Assembly: GCA_030018715.1 (NCBI GenBank)
Contig: JASEHN010000001.1
Location: 1 to 39,390 of the forward strand
Length of the DNA stretch: 39,390 nucleotides
Source of the DNA: Thermodesulfobacteriota bacterium
GTDB lineage: Bacteria; Desulfobacterota; SM23-61
Direction of reading: 5' to 3'
Below the pieces are notes generated by a model. The model was not told the DNA's origin, searched no databases, and worked only from the letters and a program-made list of their open reading frames with translations. Shown here in pieces: positions 4,117-36,926 of the stretch. The translations under genes and the position numbers were made by a program. Each line of letters begins with the position of its first letter. Positions within the stretch are counted from its first letter, which is position 1.

Positions 4117-4171
4117 ATAAAAAGCAGGGGTTCTCTCAATCGTCGGCCAACGGCTGAGAGACGTAAGCATT

Positions 4172-4218: not shown

Positions 4219-4269
4219 GGCCCCGTGGCGGCCCTTGACCGGATTCCCGCCACCGAAAGGAGAAGGACC

Positions 4270-13496: not shown

Positions 13497-13514
13497 GAAA
13501 AGGAGGCAAGGGAC

Positions 13515-13913: not shown

Positions 13914-13975
13914 CCCGGGTGTTCCGGCATCTCCCCTCGGGGTATCGGGATACCCAACATCATCTGAGGTGAGAT

Positions 13976-14374
13976 ATGTCCACTGCCCTCCTCTTAGCAG
14001 AAGGAAGAAACCGGATTCTCGGCATCCTCTTTGGGAGCACCGGCGTTGACAGTTCCCTCTATGTGGGACTTTATCGAAACGCGGCGCGACCCGCAGACAA
14101 TGCCGTCCTGGCCGACCTCTCAGAAGTATCGGGTCCTGGATATGCCCGGCGGCGCCTTTACCGGGGCAGTTGGACGGTCGATGGCAGCCAGGCCACCTAC
14201 GCTATTCAGACCTTCCTGGCTTCGGGAGGTCATTGGGGTTATGTCACCGGCTTCTTCCTGGCAACCACAGTGAATAATAGCGGCAAGCTCCTGGCGGTAG
14301 AGCATTTCGACAACGCCTTCAATATTGTGGATGGCAAGGGGCTGAAAGTCCAACCTCAGATGGTACTGACGTAG
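13976..14374 (+). CDS. Small structural paralogue B (132 aa)
   Basis: Same length and same motif pattern as 13515..13913. Confidence 0.75.
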   Translation: MSTALLLAEGRNRILGILFGSTGVDSSLYVGLYRNAARPADNAVLADLSEVSGPGYARRRLYRGSWTVDGSQATYAIQTFLASGGHWGYVTGFFLATTVNNSGKLLAVEHFDNAFNIVDGKGLKVQPQMVLT

Positions 14375-14384
14375 GAGAAATATC

Positions 14385-15386: not shown

Positions 15387-15398
15387 GGGGCCGGCCCA

Positions 15399-20304: not shown

Positions 20305-20306
20305 CC

Positions 20307-21263: not shown

Positions 21264-21275
21264 GAGGGGCAAGCT

Positions 21276-22295
21276 ATGGGTTTTACCACGGACATTTACG
21301 ACGACGTGGACCAGCAGAATCTAAGGTTGGCGGCGGCGGACCGGGCGGATGCGGCCCGGACAGAAGCGGCCAATCTGCGGCAGGCGGTCCCCCCGAATAC
21401 CGGGGAGCGCAGCTTCGGTTTTCGGTCAGGGGCGGCCACGCCGGGAGGGGTGGCCGAACGACATTTCAGCCTGGCGGCCGCGGCGGGGAAGGAATTGGGA
21501 GCGCCCACTTCTTTTAATGCCGGAGCCGGGGCCCCCGCCCCCATCGGGGTGATCCGGGGCACGACGTCGACATACGCTACGGATACCGGAGGCCCCCAGC
21601 CCCAGGAGTTCGCCACGCCCTTGCAAGCGCGGCAGGCATTCAACCGGGCGGGAGGGCAAGGGGAATATGAGCCGGCGGAAGGGCCCAGGCTCCGCATAGC
21701 GGCGGACGTTTACAACAAACGCCCGGACCTGGTGGCCCAAGCCCGTCTTGTCGCCGAGAAGGGGTTCAGGGATGTCCTGACTGAGCGGTTGCTGAAGGAG
21801 TATGGGGTGGAGGACATGGAGAAGGGTTTGGTCTTGCCGCCCGCTATCCAGAGGTTGGCCCTGGGGCATCGCCCGCAGAGCAAAGAGGAAGTGGAGGGCA
21901 TCCTTCAGCAGATCGCTCCGGAGGGTGGGAAGATTAAGGCGGCCAATCTGTGGAACGATCCCAAAACCGGCATGGCCATGCGCCGGCAACTTTTGGCCAC
22001 GACTGCCGATCCCGCGGAGCAGAAACGAATTAAGGAGGAAGTGGTTACGCCGAAAACCCTGGAATGGTTTGAGGGGCGGCGGCATCAGGGACAGCCTCCT
22101 CCAAAAAAAGTTGAGCCAACTTTCTCGGTGAACCCTCTTGGAGCATCGAGGCCTAAAGGCTCCATTTTCACCGAGCCATTGGGGAGTTCTGACAACCCGC
22201 TTCGAGAAGCAGCCAAGTTGCCTTTTGCCATTTATCGCAACATCCTGGAATCGCGGGAAGACGAAGCTGGTGTTCCGCTGCGTCTCCGACGCTAA
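21276..22295 (+). CDS. Hypothetical protein (339 aa)
   Basis: GGAGGGGCAAGCT-ATG RBS. The N-terminal third is Ala/Gly/Pro-rich and the remainder is helical. Confidence 0.65.
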   Translation: MGFTTDIYDDVDQQNLRLAAADRADAARTEAANLRQAVPPNTGERSFGFRSGAATPGGVAERHFSLAAAAGKELGAPTSFNAGAGAPAPIGVIRGTTSTYATDTGGPQPQEFATPLQARQAFNRAGGQGEYEPAEGPRLRIAADVYNKRPDLVAQARLVAEKGFRDVLTERLLKEYGVEDMEKGLVLPPAIQRLALGHRPQSKEEVEGILQQIAPEGGKIKAANLWNDPKTGMAMRRQLLATTADPAEQKRIKEEVVTPKTLEWFEGRRHQGQPPPKKVEPTFSVNPLGASRPKGSIFTEPLGSSDNPLREAAKLPFAIYRNILESREDEAGVPLRLRR

Positions 22296-22297
22296 TC

Positions 22298-25200
22298 ATG
22301 CAGGGGAGATCAATGCCTTTTCTGGATGAAGAACAGGGTCTAACGAGTCTAAGATCGGCAGCGGCTACTCCGTCGGTAGAGGCTCCTAAACTGCCGTCCG
22401 GTTGGTGGGATACCCCTGCCGAACCCGCTTCTGCCGAGTCCGTTGACCTCCCCAAATTCATGTCGGAAAGCGATTTTGACTATCAGGCGGGGCGCCAGGA
22501 GCACCTGGCTCGGAAGAAGGAAGCCGAGGCGGTGGAGGTGGAGCGGAGCCTGCCGGGGGAAATCGGGGCTTCGGTAGTCCGGGGGGCCTTGGTCCTCGCC
22601 AAGCTGCCGGTGCAGGTGGCCAAGATCGTCGGGGCCGATGTCCTGGGGAGCGAGACGGTCAAGAAGGCCGCGGTGCCCATTATCGAGGGCATTGAGGACA
22701 TAGCCGAGTCCCCGGATTGGAAACCTTCCAAGTGGGCGGGCGGCGAACCCATCGACCTGGACAGGATCATTTCCAACCCCCGGGAGGTCATCGGCCAGAT
22801 CACCTCCCAGGCCACCAATCCTCGGTTCTGGGCCTCGCAGTTGCCGGAAGGGGCCATGTCCATGATCCCTGTCATCGTGGGGGCCTGGGCGCCCCGGGCG
22901 GTGGCTATGGCCAGGAATCTGGGCACGGCCCTGGAGGCGGCCAAGGTCGCAGGCGATACCGCCAAAATTGTCGAGATCGGCAAGAAATTGAATCGTCTGA
23001 GCATCATCGGCATGTACGGTATGGCCATGGCGATGGAGGCGGGCCAGGCGGAGGAAAAGGTCCGGGAGTATGAACTGAAGAACCCGGACAAGCCCATCCC
23101 TTGGGCCAACAGGGTGATTTCCATCCTGGGAACCGGAGTAGTAGCCGGCGGCCTGGAAGCCCTGTCTTTTGGCCGGGTGTTCATGGGGAAATACGGCGGC
23201 AAAGTTGGCCTCCCGGAGATGATCAAGCAGGTCTTTGCCGGGAAGGAAGGCGGTCTGATCGTTCGCAAGATCCTGGACAGCGTGGCCACGGAAGGAGTGA
23301 CGGAAGGGGCGCAGTCCTTTGTAGAGAACGCCTTTGCCAAGTGGGGTTTCGACGCCGATCAGAAATTAACGGAAGGCATCGTTGAAAGCGTTCTCATCGG
23401 CGCGGCCCTGGGAGGCATCAGTGGAACTTTCGCCGGCCTCAATGTGCGCCACAAGGCCGTAAAGGAAGTGGCGGCCCGAATCCAAGAAACCAGGCGCCTG
23501 TCAGAGGAAGAATATCAGAGCACCTTGCAAGCGGCAGAAGAGGGGGCGGCTCGGGGTGAGGTCGTCAGGCAGATGCGGCCGCCTGAAGAGGTGGAGGCGC
23601 CGTCCCCCTACACCATCAGAGATTTACGGGAACGGCCACGGGTTGAACAAGAAATCCCTCCGGGTGAAACACCTCTTGTAGATGAGATGGGGCGTCCTAT
23701 CCGGCCCACAGAGGAAGACGCGAGGCTTCGAGAGATATTAGCGAAGCCCGCCTGGGAACGCACTGCCGATGAGAAGCTCTGGGCTGACCGCTACCGGAGA
23801 GAACTTGACGCCCTGGGCGAAACCATCACCGGGAAAACACCCCGGCCTGCACCTCAAAGGCTGATAGTCCCGCCGGCCTTTGGCGGGCCGCGTCCGGCGA
23901 CTCCGACACCCATGGGGGTGGCCGGAGCAGAAGCGGTTGCGGTGGCCACCGCACCAGAAGCTCCCAACTTGAATGAGCGGGTCAGCCAGTTGATTGCCGC
24001 AGTGGAAGAGACGGGAGACCCGAACGCAGCCCAAGAACTGAATGGGATTCTCATTGCCAACCAAAAAGAGATTGGGGATCTCTTCCGAGTGCCTGAGAGA
24101 GAGATTCCCGGCTTGAAGCCCATCGCCGACCGCCTGGAGAGCCTTATCCGCCAGGTAGAGGAAACCGGGGACCCCAAAGCCGCCCTGGAATTGCACGGCC
24201 TCCTGGCTGCCAACCGGGATGTCTTAAGCGGAGTTGTGCGCCGGGAAATTGCGGGGAGAAGCGGGTTGCCCCAGGCCCCCATGGGAGTCACCGGGGCAGA
24301 AGTGGCAGAGGCGGCCACCAAGAAACCTACACCGGCCCCAGGAGCGACGGTGGCGGCCCCTGGCGCCCCCCCTTCGCCAGGGGCCACCCCACCCGTCGCT
24401 CCGGAGCCGATCACCCCGCCCCTGACCCAGGGGAGCAATCTGGGCAAAGAGGCCATTGCCATTACCGCCCGGGGGACGGAAGTTAAGACACAATTCGCCG
24501 TCGTGGAGGCGGATGACCTGACTGTCTCCCATGATGATGGCCTGGACGAGAACCCCGACTATCCCCAAGAACTCCAGCCCCGAGACCGGACCCGAGCCGC
24601 CTCCAAATTGCAAGTTGCCGAGATTGCAAACAACCCGAATCCGCGTCGTCTGGCGGACAACCCCATGGCTTCGGACGGCGCCCCCATTATTGGCCCCGAC
24701 TTTTTGATGGAATCGGGCAACGCCCGCACCATCGCATTAAAGCGGGTCTATAACAACAAGGGATACGAAGCGCAGGCCACCAAGTATAAGAATTGGCTTA
24801 TTGACCATGCCCAGGGGTTCGGGCTTGACCCCGATGTGGTCCGGCAGGCCAAGGCCCCCATCCTTGTCAGAGTGAGGACAGAGGAAGTCGGACCCCAAGA
24901 TAGGGAGCAGCTGGTCCGGGAGTTCAACGAGCGCACCACTGCCCCCATGAGCCCTGTGGAACAGGCGCGAAGTGATGCCCAGGCCATGCTGGACAGCAAT
25001 ATTCTGGAAATCTTTGTCCCCAATGAAGACGGCGAGATCATGAGGGCGACCAATGCGCCGTTCATCAGAAGGTTCATGTCCGAGGTGGTGGGCAACGCGG
25101 AGATGGGGGCCTACTATGATCCCAAGGGGAACATCAACCAGGCCGGCATCATCCGCATCCGCAACGCCATCTTCGCCGCGGCCTATGGGGACGCCGCGGT

Positions 25201-28200
25201 CCTGGAAAGACTGGCCGAAAGCACCAGCGACGCGGCCAAGAATATCACCGCGGCCCTTACCATGGTGGCCCCTCGCATGGCGATTGCCCAGCGGCAGGTG
25301 AGGGATGGCCAATTGTATCCCCTGGACCTGAACGACCATTTGGCGGAGGCGGCCAGCATCCTTCAGAGTTTGCGGGAACAGGGCATCGGCATCGCCGATT
25401 ATCTGGCCCAGGGCAATATGATTGAGCCGGTTGCGAACCTGACCCGGGACCTGCTGAAGTTCTTTGGGGATTTTGGCCGCAGCCGGAAAAAGATTGCAGC
25501 CACTTTCAACGCCTACCTGGACATTGTGGAGGCGGCCGGAGATCCCAGACAGGGGGTGCTGGTGGAAACCGGTGTTTCTATCCCCACCCGGGAAGAAGTG
25601 CTCCAGGCCGCGATTCAGAGAATGGAGGCCAGCCATGGCACAGGAACAGCCGTATCGCCTGACCTACAGCAAGGTGAGGCCCCAAGTGGTGAAGCGCTTG
25701 GCGGCCTTGCCGGGGAAGAAAAGCCCGTGGGGGTTGAAGGCCCTGGGCTTAGCGCCCCGGCCCCAAAACCAAAACCTCTCTCGGCCATAGGCCAAAAGCT
25801 GGCCACCATCCGGGAACAGTTTAAAGATATTGATGAAGACCGGGCCCGGACGGTGCTTCGGGCCTTGCCGGATGCCTCCCCGACGGAAGCGGCCATCATG
25901 GCCCAGGATGAGGAATTGTTCAGCATTGTGGGCCGGGGCAGCTTGAGCGAGGCAGAACGCCGGTTTATCGCCGAGAAGCTGAGGCAGCTCCAACCGGGTT
26001 TACCTGGGCTGGGTGGGGGCGGGATTTTCGACATTCCGCCGGAGCCTAAGCCGAAACTCCCCCCGGGAATCGCGCCCAAGCCCGCCAAGATCGACACGGT
26101 AGAACTGGCCAAGATGTTCTACACTTCCGACCTGCGCGGCGACATCAATCTCAGCGACCTGATGAAGCAGGTTCAGCAACGCCGCAATATTCCTCCCGAA
26201 TGGCTTCAAATGCCATCTTACCGCAAGCAGGTTGAAGAAGCTCTGGAACTGGCCTTGGTCTATGCCAATCGGAGCATCGTGGCCGGGGGAGAAACCCAGA
26301 AGGACGTGGCCGGAACCCTGCGCAAGCTGATCGACCTTTACAACCGGCAGCCGGCCCTTACCTCCCGGACGTCCACCACCATCAGGAACCAGGCCTACTC
26401 CACCCCGGCGCCCCTGGCCTACCTGATGGATAAGGTTACAGGGATCACCAAGGATTCTTGGGTCTATGAGCCCACCGCGGGCAACGGCATGCTCCTGATC
26501 GGGGCCAACCCGAAGCAGACCTTGGCGAATGAGATTGACCCGCTCCGGGCCGAACATCTCCGGTCCCAAGGGTTCGATGTAGTCTCCAAAGACGCTCAAA
26601 GCCTGGTAGGGAAAGAAGGAGGGCCGCAAGAGAACTCGGTGGACGTGGTGGTCGCCAACCCGCCTTTCGGCAGCCTGGATACCCCGGTAGATTTTGACGG
26701 CTATAAAATCTCCAAGCTGGAGCATTTGATCACCCTGGACGCGCTCAAAGCCATGGACGACGACGGGCGGGCGGCATTCATTATCGGCGGCCATTCCTTC
26801 GCTGCCCCCTTGGGCGGCGCCATGGACAAGCTCACCAACGCCGACCGGGTGTTCTTCAACTACCTCTATTCCCGATACAATGTCACCCACCACATCAACA
26901 TCGACGGCAAAGTGTATGAGCGGATGGGCACCAAGTTTCCGATCCGCCTCATCACCATCGAGGGCCGCAAGGCCCAACCCGACAAGGCGGCGGCCCCTTA
27001 CAAAATCGAGCAGATAGAGGTTGCCAAAACCTTTGGGGATGTTTATAAGTTATTGAAAGGAGACATCGATGCCCGCGCAGAAGGTACTGTGGCTCCCGGA
27101 CTTTCTCAGGAACAGCCGGCCGGCCCGCGTCGGCCTGGGGGTGTTTATCTATCCCCAGGTGGCGAAGAAGGGGCCGGACGCGGAATACTACCTGGAGGCC
27201 TGGAAGGAGAAGGTCCGAGGCCTGGTCAAGAAGGTGGCGAAGTGGGAGGGCCACGTAGAGGTGCTCCGGGTGCTGGATTGCCTGGGGCCCCAAGTGGCGG
27301 ACCAGTACTTCCCGGGGGACGAGAAGCAGGAGGAGTTAATAGATATGATCAGACAATCCCCGGAGGTGTCGCTGGAGCACATCCTGGAGTATCTCCGCGA
27401 CCCAAGCCCGGCGAACAAGCAGGACCTTCTGGACCATTACTCCCAGGACCCGGAGGAAGACCATCTCAGCCCGGAAGAGGAGTTACAGGAACAGAAGGAC
27501 CTCAACCTGGACGAGTTCCTCCTAAGTCTATAGGCTCCGGCACCCAGGTAACTCTTCCCGACGGGACCACCGTCACCATCAAGGAGGAGCAGACCCCCTA
27601 CACCCGCTCCCTTAAAGAAGAACAAGCCCCCTATGGCGAACAAACCGTCGAAGTTGTGGATACCGATGGCAATGTGCGCCGAATCCCCATCTCCCAAATC
27701 CAAGGCGTCATTGACGAGAGCGGCAAAGAGGTTAAGCTCTCCGATGAGGACCGCCAGAGCCTCAAGGTTTTCCAGAAGAACCAATGGGTTGAAACCAACG
27801 ATGGCGCAACCGGCCAGGTCACCAAGGTGCGCGGTTGGGGCGACAAGATGGTGCTCACCGTCCAAGGACCAGAAGGGGCGGCCACCGTCAAACCCGCGGA
27901 CGTAAAAAATATCCTGGAAGGCCCGCCTGCGGCCAAGAGAGAAAAGGTCGCGACCTCTAAGCCCGCCGCCGAAGAAATCAACCTTCAGGTTCCCTATAAG
28001 CCTACCTCCAAAGGGCCAGCCATGAACACCGTGGCTCCTCGATACATGGCCGAAGCCGTCGGCAATTACCTGGAGAAGCTACAGGGGGAGATTGGCGGCC
28101 TGGACGAGTTTGTGCGGGGCCGCCTGGGTTACAAGACCAGGGAAGAAATGTTCAGGGTCTTGGGGGCCGAACAGATTGAAGGTGTGGCCCTGGCCATCGA

Positions 28201-31200
28201 CGCCATCGAGCGGGGTACCGGCGGCTTCGTGATCGGCCACCAGACGGGCGTGGGCAAGGGCCGCATGGTGGCGGCTATCATGCGCTACGCCAAGAACCAG
28301 GGGTTGGTGCCCATTTTCCTGACGGAGAACGATGGTCTGTATTCGGCCATGTACCGGGATATGCAGGACATTAACGCCGACCTTAACCCTCTCATCATGG
28401 CCAGCAACCCAGACAGGGCTCGCATCGTGGACAATGACGGCAACGTCATCCGCGAACTGGACAAGCAGGCCATCAAGGAAGCGGTCAAAAACCGTCGTCT
28501 ATCGGCCGGGCATGATGCCATCTTCACCACCTATCACCAAATGAATAGCCGGACCATGACCGGCAAGATGAAACTTTTAAGGGCTTTGGCTCCCCGGTCC
28601 ATCCTGATTCTGGACGAATCCCACAAGGGGGCCGGGGACAAAAGCCAGACCGGAGCCTTTCTCCGGGGCCACATGACGGGCCAGGTGCGGGGGGTGGTCT
28701 ATTCTTCGGCCACCTACGCCAAGCGGCCCGACACCATGGCCCTGTACCATCGGACGGAGCTGGGCAACCTCAACGTGGACATCGACACCGTCATTGACAA
28801 CTTGGTGATGGGTGGGGTCCCCCTGCAGGAATGGGTCGCCCATCAATGGGCCTTAAGCGGCCAGATGATCCGCAACGAACTTTCCTTTGCCGGCATTGAC
28901 ATCCCGGTGGAAGTGGACATGGAAAACGTTACCAGGGACCGGCAACGGTCGGACGATCTGACAACCGGACTAAGGGAAATTCTCAGGTTTTCCAAGGCGT
29001 TTAGCGAATGGGTAGCGGACCTAAACGATGATTTCCAAAAGGAGGGAGAGCAAGCGGAGCCGGGTTTCCGGGGTGGGATCTCGAACACCAACTTTGCCTC
29101 GGTGATGCACAACAAGATTTCCCAGCTTCTTTTCTGCCTGCGGACGGACGCCACCATCAAGGAGGCCTTGACAGCCCTTAGGCAGGGCAAGAAGGTGGTC
29201 ATCGGCTGCTATAACACTATGGAAGCCTTCGTGAAGGACATGCGGGAGGCGGGCACCATCAAGGTGGGCGATGAGCTTAATATGAATTTCGCCCAGGTGG
29301 TCCGGAAGGCTGCGGATAGCGTACTGATTTACAGAGTTGATCATGGCTATGGCGGGCAGCCGGAGACGGTGCGCGTAAGGCCTGAAGATTTACCCCCTAG
29401 ACTTCAAGCCATGTGGCGCAACCTGGTGACCCTCCTTGAAAGCACCACGACGGACGTGCCGGCCCTGCCCATCGACTACATCGCCAAGGCCCTCGTCAAA
29501 GAAGGGTTCAAGGTGGGTGAGATTACCGGCCGCGAGCATGTTTTGGATTGGGAACAGGAAGGGAACATTCTTAGAAGGCGTAGCGAGAAGGAAAAATCCG
29601 ACAAGAACACTCCCGTCAACAGATTCAACTCCGGGGAATATGACGCCCTCATCATCAACAGTTCTGGGAGCAGCGGAATCTCCCTGCACAGTGGCGAAAA
29701 GTTCAAGGATCAGCGCCCCCGGCACATGATCCTGACCCAGATGAGCAACGAGATCAACGAGGCGGTGCAGCTCCTAGGGCGCATCCACCGTACCGGGCAG
29801 GTCAACCTGCCCAGCTACATGATCAAAATCAGTTCGCTCCCGGGCGAGAAGCGGCCCCTGGCCGTCCTCCAGAAGAAATTATCGTCTCTGTTCGCCAACA
29901 TCTCGGCTAAGGGAGAAAGCGCCTACTCCCTGGACGTAAACGACATCATCAACCAGTACGGCGACCAGGTGATCGCCGAGATGTTCGCCGATGATCCCAG
30001 CCTGAATGACCGTTTAAGCGGGGTGCTGGACCGGGTGATCGACGAGGATTTTATTAACGCCGGCCGGGATGGTCGCGTTCGCCAGATCATGCAAGCCTAC
30101 CCTGATCCGGGCCACCTCACCAAACGGGCCACCGGCTGGACTTCCTTGCAGCCGGTCTCAGTGCAAGAGGAAGTCTGGTCTGCCATTGACGCCAAGTATG
30201 AAGAACTGGTTGAGCACCTGAAGCAGATCGGCGAGTACAGCTTGGAGAGCGAACACCTGGACCTTCAGGCCAAGACCGTCAGCAAGTCCGTACTGGTGGC
30301 CGGCAGCACCCAGGGGAAAAGCGAGCTCACCAGCCCCACTTATTTTGAGGCGGTTGAGGCCAAGGTTCAGAAAAAGCCCATGACCAAGGCGGAGATCGAG
30401 AAGCGGATGCACGCCAACCTCAAGGGCAGAAAGCCGCAAGACCTGGCCGACGAAATAAAAACGAAAATACAGCAAGAGTTCGACCCCTGGATCAAGGACA
30501 GGATTGCCCTGATGCGGGGAGCCGGAACCCCACAAGAGACGGTAAGCAGATTCGAGCAGGGGGCAAGAAGGGCGCTGGAACATACCCTGCGACTGCTGGG
30601 CGAATACCAAATCGGCACGGCGCTTAGCTATCCCATGATGAACATGGCTGGCGTGGTCTATGACATCAAGTATAAGCCGACCGCGGGAAGCAATCCGGCC
30701 ACTCCAAGCAACATCAAGGTCAGCATGGCGGTGGACTCCACCATGCGGATTTACAAAACTTCTATGGCTGGGGTGGCAGGGACGACCAGATATAAAATGT
30801 CAGCCCTGGAAGGGTGGTTAGGCGGTTCCTCAACTGACCCTGGTTGGGATGCAGCGCTGCCCGACAAGACCTTTGAGACTCGCTACCTGGTGACCGGCAA
30901 CCTCCTGGGCAACCCGCTCGACACGGGGCAGATGACCTTTTTCACCCGGGACGATGGCAAGCTGGCCACCGGCTTTCTGATGCCCCTCAACTTCGATTTG
31001 TCCGGGCACCCAGAGCTGCAGAGGGTGATGTTGAGCCAGGCGCAGGCGGCCACGATGCTGCGGCGTGAAGGCGCGGTGGTTACGTCAAATTATGAGAGCG
31101 TGATCAGAAGAACCAGCACGGGAGGATATCTCGTAGAGGTCCCAAGGTCAAAAGCGAAAGGCGGCAAATATTTCCTCAATGACGATATTTTGGCCCGTAC

Positions 31201-34200
31201 CCAGGGAGACTTTTACAGCGCCCGTGGTCGGATGGTCGCCAACGTAAGGAACCTGGAAGACGCTAACGCCATCATCGACATCCTTTATCAACTTGGCGTG
31301 GTCTTCTCTGCTGACCGGGCCACTGCTGAAAGACTTTTTGGGGACAGCTTGGCGGGGCCTACGGGTGTTGCCGAACCTCCAGTCCCTTATACCCAACTAA
31401 CCTCCAAACATCATGCCGAAGAGGTGAAATTAGCCTATGGCTCCGAAAAAGCAGCAAAGCAAGTCGTCCAAGAAACCGCCCGTCAGGTCGAAATCGTCCA
31501 CCGGAGACTCCAAGGAATACCCAGCCCAGGAGTGCCGGGGGTTCTGGCCAAATATCGCTCCCGCATCGCTCAAGAATATTCTAAGCAGGGATGGGTTGAT
31601 CTGTCTGGATACCAACTCGAACCCGGCAGAGAATCCCAGCAAATAGCCGAACTTTTTCAGGTTTTTCGCAACCCCAAGATGGAAATTATGCACGCCATCT
31701 ACACGAAAAACGGGGTGATCGTGGCCCACAATGCTATTACCTCCGGCCAGATCAGTCATGTGAAACCGAAAAATATTGCCCGCCATCTTTTCCGGTTACA
31801 GGAAACCGCGAAGCGCTTGGGGGCCGATAAGGTTCATATCCTGCATAATCACCCAAGCGGCAACACAGAGATGAGCATGGCCGACCGCGCCATGGCCAGG
31901 GTGGTGCGAGAGGGGTTTAAGACACTGGGGAAAACTAGCAAGGGCCAGGGGGTTGGCGGCCTTGGTAATCTCATGGGCGAGTTTATAGTCATTGACCATG
32001 GGAAGTTTAGTTACCTCTATGAGTACCCAGGCCAAGGACAACACATTAACTATGGCGACTATCGAATTTCATCGGGACTTCGCCAAGGCCGCACCGAAGG
32101 GGCGAAAATAAGAACCCCGAGTGAACTGGCGGCTTTTGTCAGCACTTTAAAATATGATTCGGACAAGGTGGTCCTGATTCACTTAAGGTCGAGCAACGAG
32201 ATCAATGGCTGGAGCGTCCATAACAAGTCCATCTTAAATAAGCCGGTGAAGCAGGTAAAGCAAAGCCTCAAGCAGGAAACGAAGGCTTTCAATGCCGCTC
32301 GCGTGATGATCATTACTGAGGATGAGGTTGCGGTCAATCGGCTGTTGTCTCAAGAGATCAAATCGGCGCCGGCAGGTGGCGACAGCCTGGCTTCTATGGT
32401 GGTGGACATCGCCAATGGGCGCGGGAGAAGTCTCCGGGGATCGGCTGAATTCTTGTGGGAGTTGTCAGGCCACGAGACCGGGAAGATGGCCCGGGCGATG
32501 TGGGAACCTCAGGCACAATATGACCGCACTGAGGCAGAGCACGTCCTGGCCGACTACGACCGAAAGATGCTGGCGCCGGGAAAACGCACCATCTGGGAGA
32601 AAATTAAGGCGGCCAAAACCGAAGTGCCCGAAAGCGCCAAGGGGTTCCTGGAGAGATTTTATAATGAGGTAGTGGATCGCTTCGCCCCCATGGAACGGGC
32701 CGAAGAGAAACTCAAGAAGGCGGGGATAGTCGTGGGTCCTGGCCAGAGCGTCGCCAACGCCCTGTCTTATATGAGGGGCCAGGAAGGGCGAGTCCGGCAG
32801 GCCTTAACCGGGGATCATGTCTATCAGAGTGTCATGGCTCCGGACGAGAATGGCCGGATGGCCTTCACCGGCGAGATTGAGGAAGTAGGGGCCAGCCTGG
32901 ACAAACGCCTGGAACCCATCAAGAAGCTGGCGGCCAAGCGGGGGGAAGAGGTCCCCAAGGTGATGCACGACCTCTTCAACCGCCTGATGGTGGCCCAGAG
33001 GGATCTGGAACTGGCCGGGGAGACCGGCGCCCGGGCCCCGGGAGAGATCAAGGGCACCCGGCCGGAAGATAGCCGAGCGGCCCTGGACGCCCTCAAATCC
33101 ATCTATGGGGATGACTTCAAAACCTTGGAAGCTGCGGCCCGGAGCGTCCGGGAATGGGGGGACCAGACCATCTTGCAACCTCTCCTGCAGGTAGGGTTTA
33201 TCGACCAGGCCCGCTACGATGAGATCAAGGACCGGAACGAGTTCTACATCCCCTTCAAGCGGCTAATGGAAGACATCGACGATTACATCGACGCCAACGC
33301 CGCGGCCCTGGGAGTCAAGGGCCGGGTGATCCAGCAAATCAAGGGTTCGGAGAGGGCCATCCTGGACCCGCTGCAGATGTGGATCGAACTGGCTTACAAG
33401 GCCAACTATGCCTTCGCCCGGAATTATGTGACGCAGAATATAGCCGTGTTGGGAGAGTACGGGGATCCCGACATCAAGGAAGTGCCGGCCAAATACCTGC
33501 CGGTCGATTTTGCTCAGAAGCAGGAGATCGACGCGGCGCTGCGGCCGCAGCTTGTCAAGCTCGCCAAGGCCCTGGGCATCGACGTTAAGGTCATGGGCGC
33601 GATGCGGGGCCGGCGCCTGGGTCAGTTCAAGAAATGGCTCAGTCAAGAAGTTCAGGCAGGCGGAATAACTTCGGAGGTGGCGAAAGATATCCAGGTGAGG
33701 TTTGCCACCTTCGAGGCGACCCTGGCGCATGAGGTAGGCCATGGGATCGACGACGCTTACGGCTTGGTGAAGCTGCTCATTGAGCAGGGCACCCCGGAGA
33801 TGAAGCGGGAACTGCGCCGCATTGCCGATCAGCGGGCCGACAGCCCCTCCAATTCCTACAAGCGATATATCCGCAAAAAAGAGGAACAGGTGGCGGAGTT
33901 TGTCTCGAGATACATCATCGACAAAAGATCGGTGGAGCGCCTGGCCCCCAACGCCCTGGCAAAGTTTGAGGGTTATCTGCGGCAAAACGACAAGCTGAAG
34001 CCCCTCCTGAATTTCAAGTTGTCTCACCAGACCGGGGTATTGGAAGCCATAAACCGGGTATGGGCCCGATCCCCTTTGCCGCCAGAACCCGGGACGATCC
34101 CCTACTACCGGGACGGCAAGCAATTGTGGCTCAAGGTTCCCCCGGATATTTTTCAGGCCACCCAGAGCATGATGCCCTCAGAAATCGGTATCCTGCTGAA

Positions 34201-36133
34201 GGTGGCCAAGGCCCCCGCGGACCTTCTGCGGGCCGGTGCGGTGCTGACTCCGGAGTTCGCCTTGGCCCGGAACCCCTTTCGGGATGTGATTCAAGCCTAC
34301 CTCTTCAGCCGCTTTGGGTTCAATCCCCTCAAGTGGTTCCGGGATGCCTTCAATCTGGTGGCCAAGGATGAAGACACCTTGAGGTATCGCCGGGAGTGGG
34401 AAGCCGGTGGCGGCTCTCTGGCAACCCTGGCGCAGTCCATGGTGGCTCCGGAACAGATCACCAGCGAAACCATCATAGGGAAGAAAAAGGGTATGGCTTA
34501 CCATGTCCATCCGCTTTCGGCCCTGCGCCATGCTTCGGCTTACCTGGAGAATATGACTCGGTTCTCCATTTACAAACAGGGCCGGGAGAAGGGCTTGAGC
34601 CATGCCGACGCAATTCACGAGGCCCGGCGCACTACCCTGGATTTTGCTCGACACGGCGGGCATCCGATAGTTCGCTACCTTAATATGATCGTCCCCTTCT
34701 GGAACGCTTCCATTCAGGGAGCGGACAAACTGATCACCGAGCTTTCTGGCCCTAACAAATGGGCAGTGATGCGGCGGATGTCGCTGCTCACCACCGCGTC
34801 TATCCTGCTATGGACTCTGGCTCGCCAGGACGATCGCTACAAAGAGCTGGAGGATTGGGAGAAAAATTACTTCTGGCATATCCCCCTGGGCAAGAATGGC
34901 CCCATGCTGCGATTCCCCAAACCTTTTGAGGCCGGAATCCTTTTCGCCTCCATGCCGGAGCGGATGCTGGAGTGGGCGGTGGATAAGGACGCGGGCGGGG
35001 TAAAGAAAGCCCTGGGGGCGGCCTGGCAGGCATTAACCCCTGAGTTCATCCCTGCCATCGTGCGTCCCATCGTGGAGGGCAGCGCCAATTACAACTGGTT
35101 CACGGGGCGCCCCATCGAGGATGCGAGCCTACAGAACCTCCCCGCGGAACTGCGGGCCAAGCCCTGGACTTCGGAACTGGCCAAGGCCGTTAGCCGTCAT
35201 GCGGGGCCCGTGGTCTCTCCCCTGGTGGAACTGAGCCCGGTGAAGGTGGAGCATTTCGTCCGGTCCATGACGGGCGGCCTGGGCGCCAACTACTTCTTCC
35301 TTGGTATTGACGCACTCTTGCGGAAGGCTGGGGCCCTGGAAGATATTCCTCAACCCACCAAAGATACCATCGAAAAGATCTGGGGGGTGAGGGCCTTCTT
35401 CACCAAACCTCCTACCGGCTACCGGGCCAAGACGGTGAACGACTTTTTTGAGGCTTACCAGAAGTCCATTCAAGCAGATCAGGGATGGAAACTTCTATGG
35501 AACGCTGGGAGCATGGACAAGCTGGACAAATTCCTGGCCGACAACCCCGAGGCCATGTTCGCCAGGGTCGCCCGGGAACAGGTAGATGCGATGGGGAAGA
35601 TTAAAAAAGAACGAAACGCCATCTACCAAAGCCGGGTTCTCTCTTCAGAGCAGAAGCGGGCCAAGCTGGACGCCCTCGACGAGCAGATCGTCAATGTGGC
35701 CCGGGCCGGCAACGCCCTGATGGACCCGGAAGTGGCCGAAGCTCTCAAGATGCCCTCCCGATTCAAGACTGAGGCGGGCAGCCGCAAATCCCTGGACCTG
35801 GACGGCTACTATAAGATGGTGGTTGAATCCGTGGGGGACGCTTATGACGCCATCCAAAAGGACCTTCCCCGGATAATCAGGATGGACGAAGCCCAACGCC
35901 AACGCTACCTCATCAAGATCATCCGCCAGGCCCGGGATGAATATCAGCCTGTCCTCAAGAAGCCGGAAGGCGTGATGAAGCCCTATCGGTTCTCAAGCCT
36001 GCTGGACAAGCCGACTCGGAAGGAGCGGGCCTGGCAGCAGGTGATGGGCTTCCGCAAAATCAACCCTGGACTTATAACCGGCTATCGACTAAAGCCGGAA
36101 GAAGAAAAGGAGGTGGGCCATGCCCCCAATTAG
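22298..36133 (+). CDS. Giant polyvalent (DarB-like) protein, 4,611 aa: ParB-like + N6-adenine-type methyltransferase + Strawberry-notch-type DExH helicase + RadC/JAB + HExxH zincin + hydrophobic segments
   Basis: A single open frame of 13,836 nt. Motifs read directly are LQPRDR (24575-24589), ESGNAR (24710-24727), VYEPTAGNG (from 26462), NPPFG (26657-26671), GHQTGVGKGR (28235-28264), DESH (28613-28624), QLLGRIHRTGQ (29768-29800), HNHPSG (31844-31861) and HEVGH (33728-33742). An alternative start is the ATG at 22313, which is preceded by GGGGAG. Confidence 0.9.
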   Translation: MQGRSMPFLDEEQGLTSLRSAAATPSVEAPKLPSGWWDTPAEPASAESVDLPKFMSESDFDYQAGRQEHLARKKEAEAVEVERSLPGEIGASVVRGALVLAKLPVQVAKIVGADVLGSETVKKAAVPIIEGIEDIAESPDWKPSKWAGGEPIDLDRIISNPREVIGQITSQATNPRFWASQLPEGAMSMIPVIVGAWAPRAVAMARNLGTALEAAKVAGDTAKIVEIGKKLNRLSIIGMYGMAMAMEAGQAEEKVREYELKNPDKPIPWANRVISILGTGVVAGGLEALSFGRVFMGKYGGKVGLPEMIKQVFAGKEGGLIVRKILDSVATEGVTEGAQSFVENAFAKWGFDADQKLTEGIVESVLIGAALGGISGTFAGLNVRHKAVKEVAARIQETRRLSEEEYQSTLQAAEEGAARGEVVRQMRPPEEVEAPSPYTIRDLRERPRVEQEIPPGETPLVDEMGRPIRPTEEDARLREILAKPAWERTADEKLWADRYRRELDALGETITGKTPRPAPQRLIVPPAFGGPRPATPTPMGVAGAEAVAVATAPEAPNLNERVSQLIAAVEETGDPNAAQELNGILIANQKEIGDLFRVPEREIPGLKPIADRLESLIRQVEETGDPKAALELHGLLAANRDVLSGVVRREIAGRSGLPQAPMGVTGAEVAEAATKKPTPAPGATVAAPGAPPSPGATPPVAPEPITPPLTQGSNLGKEAIAITARGTEVKTQFAVVEADDLTVSHDDGLDENPDYPQELQPRDRTRAASKLQVAEIANNPNPRRLADNPMASDGAPIIGPDFLMESGNARTIALKRVYNNKGYEAQATKYKNWLIDHAQGFGLDPDVVRQAKAPILVRVRTEEVGPQDREQLVREFNERTTAPMSPVEQARSDAQAMLDSNILEIFVPNEDGEIMRATNAPFIRRFMSEVVGNAEMGAYYDPKGNINQAGIIRIRNAIFAAAYGDAAVLERLAESTSDAAKNITAALTMVAPRMAIAQRQVRDGQLYPLDLNDHLAEAASILQSLREQGIGIADYLAQGNMIEPVANLTRDLLKFFGDFGRSRKKIAATFNAYLDIVEAAGDPRQGVLVETGVSIPTREEVLQAAIQRMEASHGTGTAVSPDLQQGEAPSGEALGGLAGEEKPVGVEGPGLSAPAPKPKPLSAIGQKLATIREQFKDIDEDRARTVLRALPDASPTEAAIMAQDEELFSIVGRGSLSEAERRFIAEKLRQLQPGLPGLGGGGIFDIPPEPKPKLPPGIAPKPAKIDTVELAKMFYTSDLRGDINLSDLMKQVQQRRNIPPEWLQMPSYRKQVEEALELALVYANRSIVAGGETQKDVAGTLRKLIDLYNRQPALTSRTSTTIRNQAYSTPAPLAYLMDKVTGITKDSWVYEPTAGNGMLLIGANPKQTLANEIDPLRAEHLRSQGFDVVSKDAQSLVGKEGGPQENSVDVVVANPPFGSLDTPVDFDGYKISKLEHLITLDALKAMDDDGRAAFIIGGHSFAAPLGGAMDKLTNADRVFFNYLYSRYNVTHHINIDGKVYERMGTKFPIRLITIEGRKAQPDKAAAPYKIEQIEVAKTFGDVYKLLKGDIDARAEGTVAPGLSQEQPAGPRRPGGVYLSPGGEEGAGRGILPGGLEGEGPRPGQEGGEVGGPRRGAPGAGLPGAPSGGPVLPGGREAGGVNRYDQTIPGGVAGAHPGVSPRPKPGEQAGPSGPLLPGPGGRPSQPGRGVTGTEGPQPGRVPPKSIGSGTQVTLPDGTTVTIKEEQTPYTRSLKEEQAPYGEQTVEVVDTDGNVRRIPISQIQGVIDESGKEVKLSDEDRQSLKVFQKNQWVETNDGATGQVTKVRGWGDKMVLTVQGPEGAATVKPADVKNILEGPPAAKREKVATSKPAAEEINLQVPYKPTSKGPAMNTVAPRYMAEAVGNYLEKLQGEIGGLDEFVRGRLGYKTREEMFRVLGAEQIEGVALAIDAIERGTGGFVIGHQTGVGKGRMVAAIMRYAKNQGLVPIFLTENDGLYSAMYRDMQDINADLNPLIMASNPDRARIVDNDGNVIRELDKQAIKEAVKNRRLSAGHDAIFTTYHQMNSRTMTGKMKLLRALAPRSILILDESHKGAGDKSQTGAFLRGHMTGQVRGVVYSSATYAKRPDTMALYHRTELGNLNVDIDTVIDNLVMGGVPLQEWVAHQWALSGQMIRNELSFAGIDIPVEVDMENVTRDRQRSDDLTTGLREILRFSKAFSEWVADLNDDFQKEGEQAEPGFRGGISNTNFASVMHNKISQLLFCLRTDATIKEALTALRQGKKVVIGCYNTMEAFVKDMREAGTIKVGDELNMNFAQVVRKAADSVLIYRVDHGYGGQPETVRVRPEDLPPRLQAMWRNLVTLLESTTTDVPALPIDYIAKALVKEGFKVGEITGREHVLDWEQEGNILRRRSEKEKSDKNTPVNRFNSGEYDALIINSSGSSGISLHSGEKFKDQRPRHMILTQMSNEINEAVQLLGRIHRTGQVNLPSYMIKISSLPGEKRPLAVLQKKLSSLFANISAKGESAYSLDVNDIINQYGDQVIAEMFADDPSLNDRLSGVLDRVIDEDFINAGRDGRVRQIMQAYPDPGHLTKRATGWTSLQPVSVQEEVWSAIDAKYEELVEHLKQIGEYSLESEHLDLQAKTVSKSVLVAGSTQGKSELTSPTYFEAVEAKVQKKPMTKAEIEKRMHANLKGRKPQDLADEIKTKIQQEFDPWIKDRIALMRGAGTPQETVSRFEQGARRALEHTLRLLGEYQIGTALSYPMMNMAGVVYDIKYKPTAGSNPATPSNIKVSMAVDSTMRIYKTSMAGVAGTTRYKMSALEGWLGGSSTDPGWDAALPDKTFETRYLVTGNLLGNPLDTGQMTFFTRDDGKLATGFLMPLNFDLSGHPELQRVMLSQAQAATMLRREGAVVTSNYESVIRRTSTGGYLVEVPRSKAKGGKYFLNDDILARTQGDFYSARGRMVANVRNLEDANAIIDILYQLGVVFSADRATAERLFGDSLAGPTGVAEPPVPYTQLTSKHHAEEVKLAYGSEKAAKQVVQETARQVEIVHRRLQGIPSPGVPGVLAKYRSRIAQEYSKQGWVDLSGYQLEPGRESQQIAELFQVFRNPKMEIMHAIYTKNGVIVAHNAITSGQISHVKPKNIARHLFRLQETAKRLGADKVHILHNHPSGNTEMSMADRAMARVVREGFKTLGKTSKGQGVGGLGNLMGEFIVIDHGKFSYLYEYPGQGQHINYGDYRISSGLRQGRTEGAKIRTPSELAAFVSTLKYDSDKVVLIHLRSSNEINGWSVHNKSILNKPVKQVKQSLKQETKAFNAARVMIITEDEVAVNRLLSQEIKSAPAGGDSLASMVVDIANGRGRSLRGSAEFLWELSGHETGKMARAMWEPQAQYDRTEAEHVLADYDRKMLAPGKRTIWEKIKAAKTEVPESAKGFLERFYNEVVDRFAPMERAEEKLKKAGIVVGPGQSVANALSYMRGQEGRVRQALTGDHVYQSVMAPDENGRMAFTGEIEEVGASLDKRLEPIKKLAAKRGEEVPKVMHDLFNRLMVAQRDLELAGETGARAPGEIKGTRPEDSRAALDALKSIYGDDFKTLEAAARSVREWGDQTILQPLLQVGFIDQARYDEIKDRNEFYIPFKRLMEDIDDYIDANAAALGVKGRVIQQIKGSERAILDPLQMWIELAYKANYAFARNYVTQNIAVLGEYGDPDIKEVPAKYLPVDFAQKQEIDAALRPQLVKLAKALGIDVKVMGAMRGRRLGQFKKWLSQEVQAGGITSEVAKDIQVRFATFEATLAHEVGHGIDDAYGLVKLLIEQGTPEMKRELRRIADQRADSPSNSYKRYIRKKEEQVAEFVSRYIIDKRSVERLAPNALAKFEGYLRQNDKLKPLLNFKLSHQTGVLEAINRVWARSPLPPEPGTIPYYRDGKQLWLKVPPDIFQATQSMMPSEIGILLKVAKAPADLLRAGAVLTPEFALARNPFRDVIQAYLFSRFGFNPLKWFRDAFNLVAKDEDTLRYRREWEAGGGSLATLAQSMVAPEQITSETIIGKKKGMAYHVHPLSALRHASAYLENMTRFSIYKQGREKGLSHADAIHEARRTTLDFARHGGHPIVRYLNMIVPFWNASIQGADKLITELSGPNKWAVMRRMSLLTTASILLWTLARQDDRYKELEDWEKNYFWHIPLGKNGPMLRFPKPFEAGILFASMPERMLEWAVDKDAGGVKKALGAAWQALTPEFIPAIVRPIVEGSANYNWFTGRPIEDASLQNLPAELRAKPWTSELAKAVSRHAGPVVSPLVELSPVKVEHFVRSMTGGLGANYFFLGIDALLRKAGALEDIPQPTKDTIEKIWGVRAFFTKPPTGYRAKTVNDFFEAYQKSIQADQGWKLLWNAGSMDKLDKFLADNPEAMFARVAREQVDAMGKIKKERNAIYQSRVLSSEQKRAKLDALDEQIVNVARAGNALMDPEVAEALKMPSRFKTEAGSRKSLDLDGYYKMVVESVGDAYDAIQKDLPRIIRMDEAQRQRYLIKIIRQARDEYQPVLKKPEGVMKPYRFSSLLDKPTRKERAWQQVMGFRKINPGLITGYRLKPEEEKEVGHAPN
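24446..24770 (+). other. ParB/sulfiredoxin-like module of the giant protein
   Basis: FAVVEADDLTVSHD...ELQPRDRTRAASKLQVAEIA...GAPIIGPDFLMESGNARTIALKRVY matches the ParB-like N-terminal fold pattern, including a terminal GN.R motif. Confidence 0.6.
26375..26970 (+). other. Amino (N6-adenine-type) DNA methyltransferase module
   Basis: SAM-binding motif I (VYEPTAGNGML) and catalytic motif IV (VVANPPFG) occur in gamma-class order. Confidence 0.8.
27069..27533 (+). CDS. Candidate nested gene (154 aa, acidic) in the +1 frame of the giant ORF linker
   Basis: AAGGAG at 27057-27062, a 6-nt spacer, then ATG at 27069. An in-frame TGA lies at 27054. By hand tally, third codon positions are roughly 80% G/C, as in the rest of the phage. 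The host frame over the same bases is roughly 30% G/C at third positions and encodes only G/P/R/E low-complexity sequence. Confidence 0.5.
   Translation: MPAQKVLWLPDFLRNSRPARVGLGVFIYPQVAKKGPDAEYYLEAWKEKVRGLVKKVAKWEGHVEVLRVLDCLGPQVADQYFPGDEKQEELIDMIRQSPEVSLEHILEYLRDPSPANKQDLLDHYSQDPEEDHLSPEEELQEQKDLNLDEFLLSL
28160..29925 (+). other. Strawberry-notch/DarB-type DExH helicase module
   Basis: Walker A GHQTGVGKGR, Walker B LILDESHKGAG, SSATYAKRP, and the C-terminal lobe QLLGRIHRTGQVNLPSY. Confidence 0.75.
31640..31910 (+). other. RadC-type JAB/MPN metalloprotease-like module
   Basis: VHILHNHPSGNTEMSMAD matches the HxHPSG...S..D JAMM signature of RadC-like proteins. Confidence 0.7.
33690..33910 (+). 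other. Zincin metallopeptidase-like module
   Basis: TLAHEVGHGIDD (HExxH), with downstream Glu candidates for the third ligand (KKEEQVAEF). Confidence 0.55.
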
Positions 36134-36482
36134 ACGAGTCAAGAGGATCAAGAGGGTGTTCACCTTTGCTTGGGACGAGGTATTGAAGTCTCAGCCTTCG
36201 GTGATGGAGGGGAAAATCCACCAAATCCACTTCCGGGTGCCCAATTCCGTGAACAATGTGGCCGCCACTTTGACCCTGGAAGACGAGGATGACTACGAAA
36301 TCTACAGCTCTGGGGCCAGGGCAGAGGACGCCAATTACAACCTCATCCCCACCCCGATTCCCCTGCTGGTGGCCGGGAACTTCACCTTCAAGGTGACGCT
36401 GGCTGGCGCCCCGGGGGTCGAGGGGCCTCCGCCATCCGATCCGGTTGCCGCTGTGGCCGTGATTTACTACGACGGCATCTAG
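36120..36482 (+). CDS. Hypothetical protein (120 aa)
   Basis: AAAAGGAGGTGGGCC-ATG RBS. The start overlaps the last 14 nt of the giant ORF. Beta-rich sequence. Confidence 0.65.
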   Translation: MPPIRRVKRIKRVFTFAWDEVLKSQPSVMEGKIHQIHFRVPNSVNNVAATLTLEDEDDYEIYSSGARAEDANYNLIPTPIPLLVAGNFTFKVTLAGAPGVEGPPPSDPVAAVAVIYYDGI

Positions 36483-36512: not shown

Positions 36513-36926
36513 ATGACCCGGATAGTCGAAGCCTTCGGGCCCCACCTGATTCTGGACGGGTTCGGATGCAATGCGGCCGCCTTGGTGGACAAGGAGGGGG
36601 TGCGGCGGTTTCTGGACCGGACTCCGGATCTCATTGGCATGACCAAAATCATGCCCCCTTTTGTCTTTCGTTTCCCCCGGACAGGCGGTTTGTCCGGCAT
36701 CGTCATCATCGCCGAGAGCCACATCAGCGTCCACACCTGGCCGGAGAAAGGGTCTCTGCAACTGGACATCTTTTCCTGCAAGCAATTTGATGTGCGGCAG
36801 GCCATTAATGAGGCGGTGCGGCAGTTTGGGATTAAGGAGTATGACCGTCAGGTTTTGGACCGGGGATTGGAGTTTCCGCGCAGCCTTGCCTTTGACTACC
36901 TTATCTCTGAACGGGTGAAGAAGTGA
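36513..36926 (+). CDS. speH: S-adenosylmethionine decarboxylase proenzyme, small pyruvoyl (SpeH) type
   Basis: GLSGIVIIAESHISVHTWPEKGSLQLDIFSC matches the self-cleavage and active-site signature (Glu68/Ser69 ES-H..HTWPE ... D.F.C). The length (137 aa) fits the small bacterial/archaeal class. GGTAGGAGGG RBS. Confidence 0.85.
   Translation: MTRIVEAFGPHLILDGFGCNAAALVDKEGVRRFLDRTPDLIGMTKIMPPFVFRFPRTGGLSGIVIIAESHISVHTWPEKGSLQLDIFSCKQFDVRQAINEAVRQFGIKEYDRQVLDRGLEFPRSLAFDYLISERVKK

Follow-up and report, generated by a model that had tools for sequence, protein, structure and literature searches.

A giant polyvalent protein closing a phage virion module from Thermodesulfobacteriota: conserved terminal modules around a DdrB-like, methyltransferase, helicase and RadC cargo

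Which kind of protein is encoded by an open reading frame (ORF) that fills more than a third of a phage-derived contig, and at which stage of infection would it act? The question is raised by positions 1 to 39,390 (forward strand) of contig JASEHN010000001.1 in assembly GCA_030018715.1 of a Thermodesulfobacteriota bacterium; this whole stretch is called the window hereafter. An initial annotation, made from the letters alone, had described a single 13.8-kb ORF of 4,611 amino acids (aa) covering 35% of it, and this description stood. ORF listing and translation placed the frame at 22298..36133 on the plus strand, with an ATG start, 4,611 codons and a single terminal stop. It takes up 35.1% of the 39,390 nucleotides (nt), the second-longest ORF of the window being 842 aa, and it closes the virion module, with the lysis genes directly after it. 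We assign its product with high confidence to the phage-type large polyvalent proteins in the sense of Iyer and Aravind. By analogy with better known systems, we further consider it probable that virions carry the protein and release it together with the DNA, and that it is held at the membrane, where it would blunt restriction.

The class was defined by Iyer, Burroughs, Anand, de Souza and Aravind in 2017, who also described the ddrB-ParB and LPD38 families and the methylase-helicase dyad, and it comprises single polypeptides with several (2-15) distinct effector or enzymatic domains. In the window protein, five Pfam families lay above threshold and a methyltransferase came in addition. We place the protein in the class because two of these families, both defined for polyvalent proteins, were found far above their Pfam thresholds: ddrB-ParB at aa 725-860 (24470-24877; E 4.5e-35, 120.8 bits against a cut-off of 27.6) and LPD38 (PF18857) at aa 4178-4330 (34829..35287, plus strand; E 1.6e-38, 133.2 bits against a cut-off of 27). 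The late, virion-module position of the gene, a methylase-helicase dyad (aa ~1340-1560 and aa 1954-2647) and the virion-associated homologues considered below agree with this assignment. The initial annotation had named the same class, having overlooked LPD38. The window protein departs from the 2017 survey in its helicase, which is of the Strawberry-notch (Sno) type that Iyer et al. reported in polyvalent proteins only "in a few instances".

LPD38 is the core of a mostly helical C-terminal module that extends over aa ~3404-4605 (32507..36112, plus strand). The last ~800 aa had been taken for a mere trailing region; they turned out to belong to this module of ~1,200 aa, which is the best conserved part of the protein and defines its class. 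An AlphaFold (AF2) model of aa 3501-4611 reached a mean predicted local distance difference test score (pLDDT) of 82.7 and a predicted template modelling score (pTM) of 0.70. Foldseek matched it to the C-terminal fragments of dozens of phage "large polyvalent" proteins in BFVD (template modelling score, TM, 0.5-0.6 over ~1,000 columns), the other parts of which are annotated as RelA/SpoT, lytic transglycosylase, Type I methylase, helicase or zeta toxin. The best structural match was gp25 of Escherichia phage PTXU04 (E 2.4e-30, TM 0.60, ~975 columns). The same module also closes a 1,254-aa pelagiphage protein encoded among virion structural genes, where its gene directly precedes that of the tail fibre and comes two genes after one annotated as internal virion protein.

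Embedded in the C-terminal module is an insert at aa ~3720-3918 (33455..34051, plus strand) that carries HEVGH at aa 3811 (33728-33742), the sole HExxH of the giant protein. Nine homologues have this segment; HExxH is kept in eight of them and reads HNxxH in the ninth, and within the HExxHxxD pattern both His, the Asp and a Glu ~48 residues downstream are invariant in all nine. The insert is absent from one relative, L017, and from more distant LPD38 proteins. An HExxH zincin had been proposed here. The motif and its position stood, whereas membership in a peptidase family did not gain support: used as a profile against PDB and Pfam, the segment gave no significant match to a peptidase family and only non-significant, motif-level matches to reprolysins. 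The name zincin therefore applies to the motif alone.

The N-terminal module (aa ~57-420; 22466..23557, plus strand) is all-helical and follows a disordered leader of ~56 aa. The three to four hydrophobic helices of the initial annotation were recovered as four Gly-rich segments at aa 89-116, 186-204, 273-291 and 357-379, of moderate hydropathy only (1.4-1.7). When the first 700 aa served as HMMER query, a module corresponding to aa ~66-380 was found at the head of many giant proteins of 2.4-5.0 thousand aa. Against PDB, the Foldseek searches returned no significant match for the N-terminal model (best E 0.66) or for the C-terminal one (best E 0.12), and therefore established no link to the ejection proteins of T7, P22 or N4. 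The N-terminal module did match PHROG 2206, a family of N4-like virion RNA polymerases (vRNAP), with an E of 2.3e-11. Our own hidden Markov model (HMM) of the module did not find N4 vRNAP, however, and hhalign gave a probability of 9.8% over 44 columns against the N4 N-terminal domain, where compositional bias may contribute. We do not claim homology between the two.

Low-complexity linkers, rich in Pro or in Gly and Pro, separate the modules. The one proposed from the letters, a Gly/Pro linker of ~155 aa, corresponds to aa 1596-1750 (27083..27547, plus strand; 30% Gly, 19% Pro). A duplicated helical module had likewise been suspected, and aa ~555-652 (23960..24253, plus strand) indeed hold a true tandem repeat of ~45 aa: aa ~559-602 aligned to aa 610-650 with a score of 94, against 25 +/- 5 in shuffled sequences. 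The same comparison detected no internal repeat at aa ~1750-1890 (score 31 against 25 +/- 5), the stretch for which the initial annotation had suggested small beta modules.

Between the two terminal modules, the cargo comes in the order DdrB-type ParB, HsdM-like N6-adenine methyltransferase, Strawberry-notch translocase/helicase and RadC/JAB. The initial annotation had the positions of all sequence motifs exactly right (EPTAGNG at aa 1391, NPPFG at 1454, GVGKGR at 1984, DESH at 2106, HRTGQ at 2497, HNHPSG at 3183 and HEVGH at 3811), and none of the catalytic motifs in the methyltransferase, helicase and RadC domains is disrupted. Its ParB-like module of aa ~717-824 is the ddrB-ParB domain given above, which lies within a larger region, aa 703-1070 (24404..25507, plus strand), homologous to aa 14-387 of phage P1 DdrB (35% identity over 385 columns, E 5e-56). 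Pfam ddrB-ParB is present in both proteins; aa 388-995 of P1 DdrB have no counterpart in the window protein.

The methyltransferase (aa ~1340-1560; 26315..26977, plus strand) shows the gamma-type motif order of amino-methyltransferases, as had been claimed, with EPTAGNG as motif I and NPPFG as motif IV. Pfam gave a weak, sub-threshold match to N6_Mtase (E 0.0018), and a single-sequence search of PDB returned nothing for this region or for the helicase region. The region nevertheless has 69 homologues, many of them carrying PF02384, PF01170 or PF07669 or named as methyltransferases dependent on S-adenosylmethionine (SAM), and it is matched by DNA-methyltransferase families of PHROG. A profile of 35 homologues, searched against PDB, retrieved the Type I HsdM proteins first (StySJI, 3.2e-6; EcoR124II, 5.1e-6; also EcoKI). 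The identification as an HsdM-like N6-adenine methyltransferase, drawn from homologues and the PDB profile together, appears solid. In a separate PADLOC search, the matches were limited to the methyltransferase level (mad2, 5.6e-6; Type I MTase, 1.6e-3), and a reading of the locus as an anti-phage defence system was rejected.

Downstream of the linker, at 28157..30238 on the plus strand, AAA_34 (aa 1954-2203; E 3.9e-14, 52.7 bits against a cut-off of 27) and Helicase_C_4 (aa 2405-2647; E 1.5e-24, 87.7 bits against a cut-off of 30.5) together form a superfamily 2 (SF2) helicase or translocase, with motifs I (GVGKGR), II (DESH) and VI (HRTGQ) in place. Strawberry-notch helicases are made up of these two families. 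Of the label "Strawberry-notch/DarB-type", the first half was thus right and the second is an analogy, since P1 DarB carries a SNF2-related domain and has no detectable similarity to the window protein. The following region (aa ~2648-3020; 30239..31357, plus strand) has no family match and is kept together with the helicase in gp3 of Bacteroides phage BS-TP4 and in the public proteins P0072 and P0079. The RadC-type JAB domain lies at aa 3113-3211 (31634..31930, plus strand; Pfam RadC, E 5.6e-7, 30 bits against a cut-off of 22.1) and was the sole addition from an NCBIfam search. Aligned to the RadC structure 2qlc, the segment HNHPSGNTEMSMAD gives a complete HxHPx6Sx2D, or JAMM, motif with H3183, H3185, S3193 and D3196.

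Comparison of related giants suggests how these parts belong together. In the relatives P0064, P0066, P0067, P0070, L017 and L019 both ends of the chain, the N-terminal module and aa ~3404-4605, are kept and the middles differ. P0067, with 2,666 aa, has DdrB and RadC and no region similar to the methyltransferase-helicase of the window; P0064 and P0070 retain the terminal modules with no detectable similarity to that region; in P0066, L017 and L019 the methyltransferase and helicase are different ones (24-30% identity), and nothing resembles the ParB or RadC domains. To judge from these alignments, the protein is built as a conserved N- and C-terminal chassis around a swappable enzyme cargo. 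The exchange can be followed in much closer relatives from IMG/VR. Two of them, L014 and L015, are 82-83% identical to the window and hold an unrelated segment of ~300 aa instead of the DdrB module (L014 1205-2620, L015 1211-2875). In L016, which is 85% identical, the slot (2849-3199) contains only a 117-aa copy of a downstream beta-rich segment. These near-identical sequences point clearly to gain, loss and replacement of modules in situ.

All three of L014, L015 and L016 have an extra copy of a beta-rich segment resembling window aa 1744-1819. The replacing segment of L014 and L015 shows a ELIDGHQRLEAG motif, found no match in PDB and no similarity to the DdrB module, and may represent a different, putative ParB/Srx-type domain. 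P0062, a relative of 4,982 aa, has an extra segment of ~415 aa (aa 1257-1671; L011 13768-15014) between its DdrB-like region and the methyltransferase, without counterpart in the window.

How firmly can the single frame itself be taken? A stop-free run of 4,611 codons has a chance probability of ~1e-74 at the base composition of the window. The guanine plus cytosine (GC) content of the codon positions followed the same coding pattern in nine of nine blocks of 500 codons, therefore no stretch of the frame appears non-coding. Related loci supplied a further check of continuity. In L001 (939-14635) and L002 (977-15439) the homologue is called as four to seven separate ORFs, and because these frames are broken the first protein database search returned fragments below 2,000 aa only. 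By tblastn, however, homology was continuous across every frame change, one of which falls within the helicase motif II region. The split frames are probably indel errors or pseudogenisation and not separate genes. Nine other related loci hold one unbroken frame of 3,831-4,985 aa: two JGI contigs with P0062, four IMG/VR contigs of 51-71 kb and three contigs of Deltaproteobacteria/Thermodesulfobacteriota metagenome-assembled genomes (MAGs). P0062 is collinear with the window protein from end to end, at 44-57% identity and with an identical Pfam set.

The start needs a small correction. In-frame ATG codons lie at 22298 and 22313, 15 nt apart. As a Shine-Dalgarno-like site, GGGGAG, precedes 22313 and the identical public protein P0060 (4,606 aa) is called from there, Met6 (22313) is probably the real start. 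The predicted product then has 4,606 aa, 505 kDa and an isoelectric point of 6.9. Only two cysteines occur among the 4,611 residues of the full frame; such a low count may fit a crossing of the periplasm in unfolded form, or may be mere composition.

The initial annotation had regarded this combination at this size as novel. Our comparisons did not confirm this, since giants of the same size occupy the same position in Bcep22-like phages and a collinear version exists in phage BS-TP4. The Bcep22-like "DarB-like" proteins (Bcep22 gp75; DC1 gp67, 4,650 aa; JC1 gp69, 4,515 aa) are as large as the window protein, and the genes of DC1 gp67 and JC1 gp69 likewise end the virion module and adjoin the lysis cassette. 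These giants follow the same logic of methyltransferase, helicase and C-terminal LPD38, and the Hc3-type structural module of podophages is common to them and the window as well. Sequence similarity is confined to the C-terminal module: window aa 4053-4463 aligned to DC1 gp67 aa 4209-4636 with an E of 1.6e-14 and 23% identity in blastp, LPD38 being present in both, and blastp detected nothing outside this module. DC1 gp67 has an N-terminal SLT lytic transglycosylase, an Eco57I-type methyltransferase, a generic SF2 helicase and LPD3, and lacks ParB and RadC, whereas Pfam finds no SLT/lysozyme match or other muralytic domain in the window protein. On this sequence comparison, the window protein is an analogue that shares one module with the Bcep22-type giants, and not their orthologue. 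For JC1 gp69, 51 unique peptides were identified by mass spectrometry of CsCl-purified virions (JC1 paper); the equivalent virion data for Bcep22 and BcepIL02 are those of Gill et al., as cited in the JC1 paper.

Gp3 of BS-TP4 (5,391 aa, annotated as "hypothetical") comes closer in content. It is a single giant ORF with collinear ParB, methyltransferase, Sno helicase plus post-helicase region and LPD38 at 22-36% identity. It differs in being ~800 aa longer, in lacking a detectable shared N-terminal module or RadC, in its gene lying next to and before the portal gene instead of before lysis genes, and in a host of a different phylum.

In phage P1, DarB and DdrB, components of the Dar anti-restriction system, are separate proteins of a myovirus, in contrast to the one chain in the window. 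Both are located in the head; DarB blocks Type I restriction and has an N-terminal capsid-targeting signal. P1 DarB combines N6_Mtase/Eco57I with SNF2-rel_dom, whereas the window protein has AAA_34 and Helicase_C_4, and blastp between the two gave a best E of 0.36, that is, no detectable similarity. A tblastn search with window aa 701-2700 found ddrB as its sole match within P1. "DarB-like" is thus best understood as an architectural analogy of the methyltransferase-helicase pair, the true P1 homologue being DdrB. In P1 DdrB, an HExxH peptidase follows right after the ParB half at the C-terminus, whereas the HExxH of the window protein lies ~2,700 aa further downstream.

Two further LPD38-type proteins, from 933W-like and other podophages, phi24B gp47 (2,811 aa) and PTXU04 gp25 (2,198 aa), share the C-terminal fold at about half the size. 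The cargo of phi24B gp47 consists of LPD1, LPD5 and a MuF-C metallopeptidase, and for neither protein was a set of methyltransferase, Sno helicase, ParB and RadC reported. Phi24B gp47, which contains LPD38, is abundant in virions and invisible in cryo-EM maps, and its authors propose it as an ejection protein; PTXU04 gp25 was fitness-essential and required for infection in a CRISPRi-ART screen. N4 vRNAP (gp50, 3,500 aa), finally, is a packaged and ejected giant with a layout similar to that of the window protein: a membrane-inserting N-terminal domain, low-complexity linkers, one of them of 100 aa, and cytoplasmic enzymatic beads. Current views have it moving as a loosely folded chain, "beads on a string", that stays anchored in the inner membrane. 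No RNA polymerase domain is present in the window protein, and the C-terminal domains of the two are unrelated. Already known, therefore, are the protein itself, which is present in public collections, its class, and equally large giants in the corresponding genomic position, one of them verified in virions. New, in a modest sense, are this particular cargo set, the apparent union of DdrB-like and DarB-like functions in one chain, the clear signs of modules gained, lost and replaced in situ among near-identical relatives and the delimitation of two terminal modules without solved structure.

From these precedents, the following course of events seems the most likely. A few copies would be packed into the capsid late in infection, and during entry the chain would be expelled through the short tail with the DNA, loosely folded as "beads on a string". 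The terminal modules would join or dock to a trans-envelope ejection conduit, and the N-terminal helices would anchor the protein in the inner membrane. The enzymatic beads would regain their fold in the cytoplasm, where the DNA comes in. There, methyltransferase and translocase as a pair, together with the ParB-type NTPase/nuclease and RadC as a domain that processes nucleic acids, would shield the incoming genome from restriction and other immediate defences, and the conserved HExxH element may process the protein. We favor this picture because of the architecture, the intact catalytic motifs, the conservation of the chassis, the position in the virion module and the precedents of JC1 gp69, phi24B gp47, PTXU04 gp25, the P1 Dar system and N4. 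Probable packaging and co-injection had also been suggested by the initial annotation, and the gene position and virion-associated homologues speak for them.

Several points weigh against it. Packaging and entry are read from homologues and precedents, for a phage that has no cultured host. The similarity to the Burkholderia phage proteins verified by mass spectrometry is restricted to the C-terminal module, at the 23% identity and E of 1.6e-14 given above. Neither terminal module resembled any solved ejection protein in the Foldseek searches of PDB, the N-terminal link to N4 is weak (9.8% over 44 columns by hhalign with possible compositional bias, nothing with our own HMM), and the supposed membrane helices are only moderately hydrophobic, at 1.4-1.7. 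The peptidase assignment of the HExxH element found no family-level match with Pfam or PDB profiles. We also know of no anti-restriction activity shown for any Sno-type, RadC or DdrB-ParB module.

Alternatively, the giant ORF could be a format of delivery or expression, a polyprotein from which the HExxH element and/or the RadC-type JAB peptidase would cut independent proteins, before packaging or after entry. We regard this as possible, if on balance improbable. Iyer et al. propose processing of polyvalent proteins by metallopeptidases and describe cleavage of P1 DdrB to ~76 kDa before packaging; the invariance of both HExxH histidines and the downstream Glu, the intact JAMM motif and the long low-complexity linkers between modules point in the same direction. 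N4 vRNAP and other polyvalent proteins, however, travel unprocessed, the HExxH segment has no peptidase-family match and reads HNxxH in one homologue, and Iyer et al. see RadC as acting on nucleic acids and not as a peptidase. Cleavage would in any case be compatible with packaging and ejection, not exclusive of them.

Could the protein instead stay in the producing cell? A late-expressed, unpackaged enzyme might methylate or process progeny DNA before or during packaging. The methyltransferase and the translocase could both work on replicated DNA, and a gene for an AdoMet (S-adenosylmethionine) decarboxylase, which uses SAM, lies nearby in the window and in L011. Yet the giant gene sits within the virion module and its terminal modules are common to proteins found in virions; a plain modification methylase needs neither 4,600 aa nor hydrophobic N-terminal helices; and relatives preserve the chassis without a similar methyltransferase-helicase (P0064, P0070) or have almost no room for one (P0067). 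For these reasons we think this explanation unlikely.

A further option assigns the protein a mechanical role, in which a membrane-anchored Sno translocase would pull the genome into the cell and the fused methyltransferase would mark it, in analogy to the entry of N4 DNA by vRNAP transcription. Iyer et al. describe Sno/SNF2-type enzymes as translocases on double-stranded DNA, the N-terminal anchor, linkers and enzymes are laid out as in N4 vRNAP, and no other cargo recurs as often as the methyltransferase-helicase pair (window, BS-TP4, DC1, L017, L019). But P0064, P0067 and P0070 keep the chassis with no similarity to this pair, and the phi24B gp47 and Methanosarcina virus MetMV giants have no reported or detected helicase domain. 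On these grounds entry cannot depend on a translocase in general, and we rate this option as very unlikely. In a wider conjecture, which we also consider unlikely, the terminal modules would be a general phage "protein-injection chassis" that takes ~3,000 aa of arbitrary cargo through a short tail; in this lineage the cargo would act as an entry machine besides supplying free effectors, with a Sno translocase, held at the membrane by the N-terminal helices, reeling the genome in while the HsdM-like methyltransferase marks the passing DNA ("methylate as you enter"), and DdrB-ParB and RadC would handle DNA ends. An artefactual fusion of adjacent genes by sequencing or assembly error, which the several ORFs of the L001/L002 region might suggest, is hardly credible and was rejected, because homology runs through those frame changes as indel errors produce it, nine intact loci come from IMG/VR, JGI and GTDB MAGs, and errors break ORFs instead of making 4,611 stop-free codons.

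The surroundings of the gene are those of a podophage. As the initial annotation had it, the giant gene stands between tail or internal-protein genes and lysis genes. Upstream lie a terminase fragment, portal (1751-3721) and major capsid (5294-6262) genes and the gene of an Hc3-type "head closure/needle head" protein (9162-10451). Tail genes are present as well, one of which encodes a protein with a full subtilase domain (12081-13496; Peptidase_S8, E 1e-56), and the next large gene (15399-17927) specifies a virion protein with a ConA-like lectin domain. Downstream, the AdoMet decarboxylase gene is accompanied by a holin-like one, whose 94-aa product has a single transmembrane segment, by one for a GH108 endolysin and by one that resembles spanin genes. 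Directly before the giant gene, at 17930-22295, lie four genes of 318-405 aa without family match; L011 (5089-9991) and L012 show four genes of 365-403 aa before a full-length homologue, matching the window in number and approximate size. These genes are candidates for further internal or ejection proteins acting with the giant protein.

The decarboxylase gene (AdoMet_dc, 36513-36926; Pfam E 3e-29) lies between the giant gene and the endolysin gene, and in L011 (31574-32032) it is likewise downstream of the giant gene; the enzyme might tune SAM or polyamine pools in infection. A 120-aa ORF (36120-36482) without family match begins within the end of the giant gene, the two having 14 nt in common; in L001 and L002 the giant gene is followed by small ORFs (120 and 113 aa). 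The stretch from 11 to 17 kb (11000-17000) has a GC content of 0.50-0.55 against ~0.60 elsewhere; with its subtilase and lectin genes, it looks as expected of an exchanged host-recognition cassette. Two adjacent genes of 132 aa (13515-13913 and 13976-14374) both match phrog_8123 and are apparently tandem paralogues.

As to affiliation, the Hc3-like protein connects the phage with F116-like and other podophages, and in the JC1 paper Bcep22-like and 933W-like phages form one structural group. Megablast of both window halves against GenBank phages gave no match, nor did tblastn of the N-terminal 700 aa of the giant protein against phages. Because the relatives were found in MAGs of Thermodesulfobacteriota/Deltaproteobacteria, the host is probably a sulfate-reducing or syntrophic member of the Thermodesulfobacteriota. 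One relative adjoins an integrase and RecT, so at least some relatives are temperate. The top GenBank-phage match of the Hc3-like protein, at 33% identity, was MK170447.1, "Methanosarcina virus MetMV" (L009/L010), which has a recorded archaeal host, a similar order of structural genes and a gene for a protein of 3,002 aa with LPD38 at its end (E 1.4e-40). The MetMV virion module resembles those of bacterial podophages, which makes its recorded host or relationship worth a second look.

What does this locus add to the biology of these phages? The current picture of phage entry and anti-defence remains unchanged, and the value of the finding is incremental. To our knowledge, structures have not been solved, nor cargoes tested biochemically, for any LPD38-type giant, and polyvalent proteins are probably the largest single investment of many podophages, here amounting to 35% of the window. 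The relatives constitute a natural experiment with the same chassis and different cargo, in which sequences of 82-85% identity vary in the presence, absence or replacement of the DdrB-type ParB. Such variation marks module boundaries and dispensable parts, which is useful for the design of truncations or of protein-delivering phages. The locus also connects the multi-protein Dar system of P1 with its single-chain versions.

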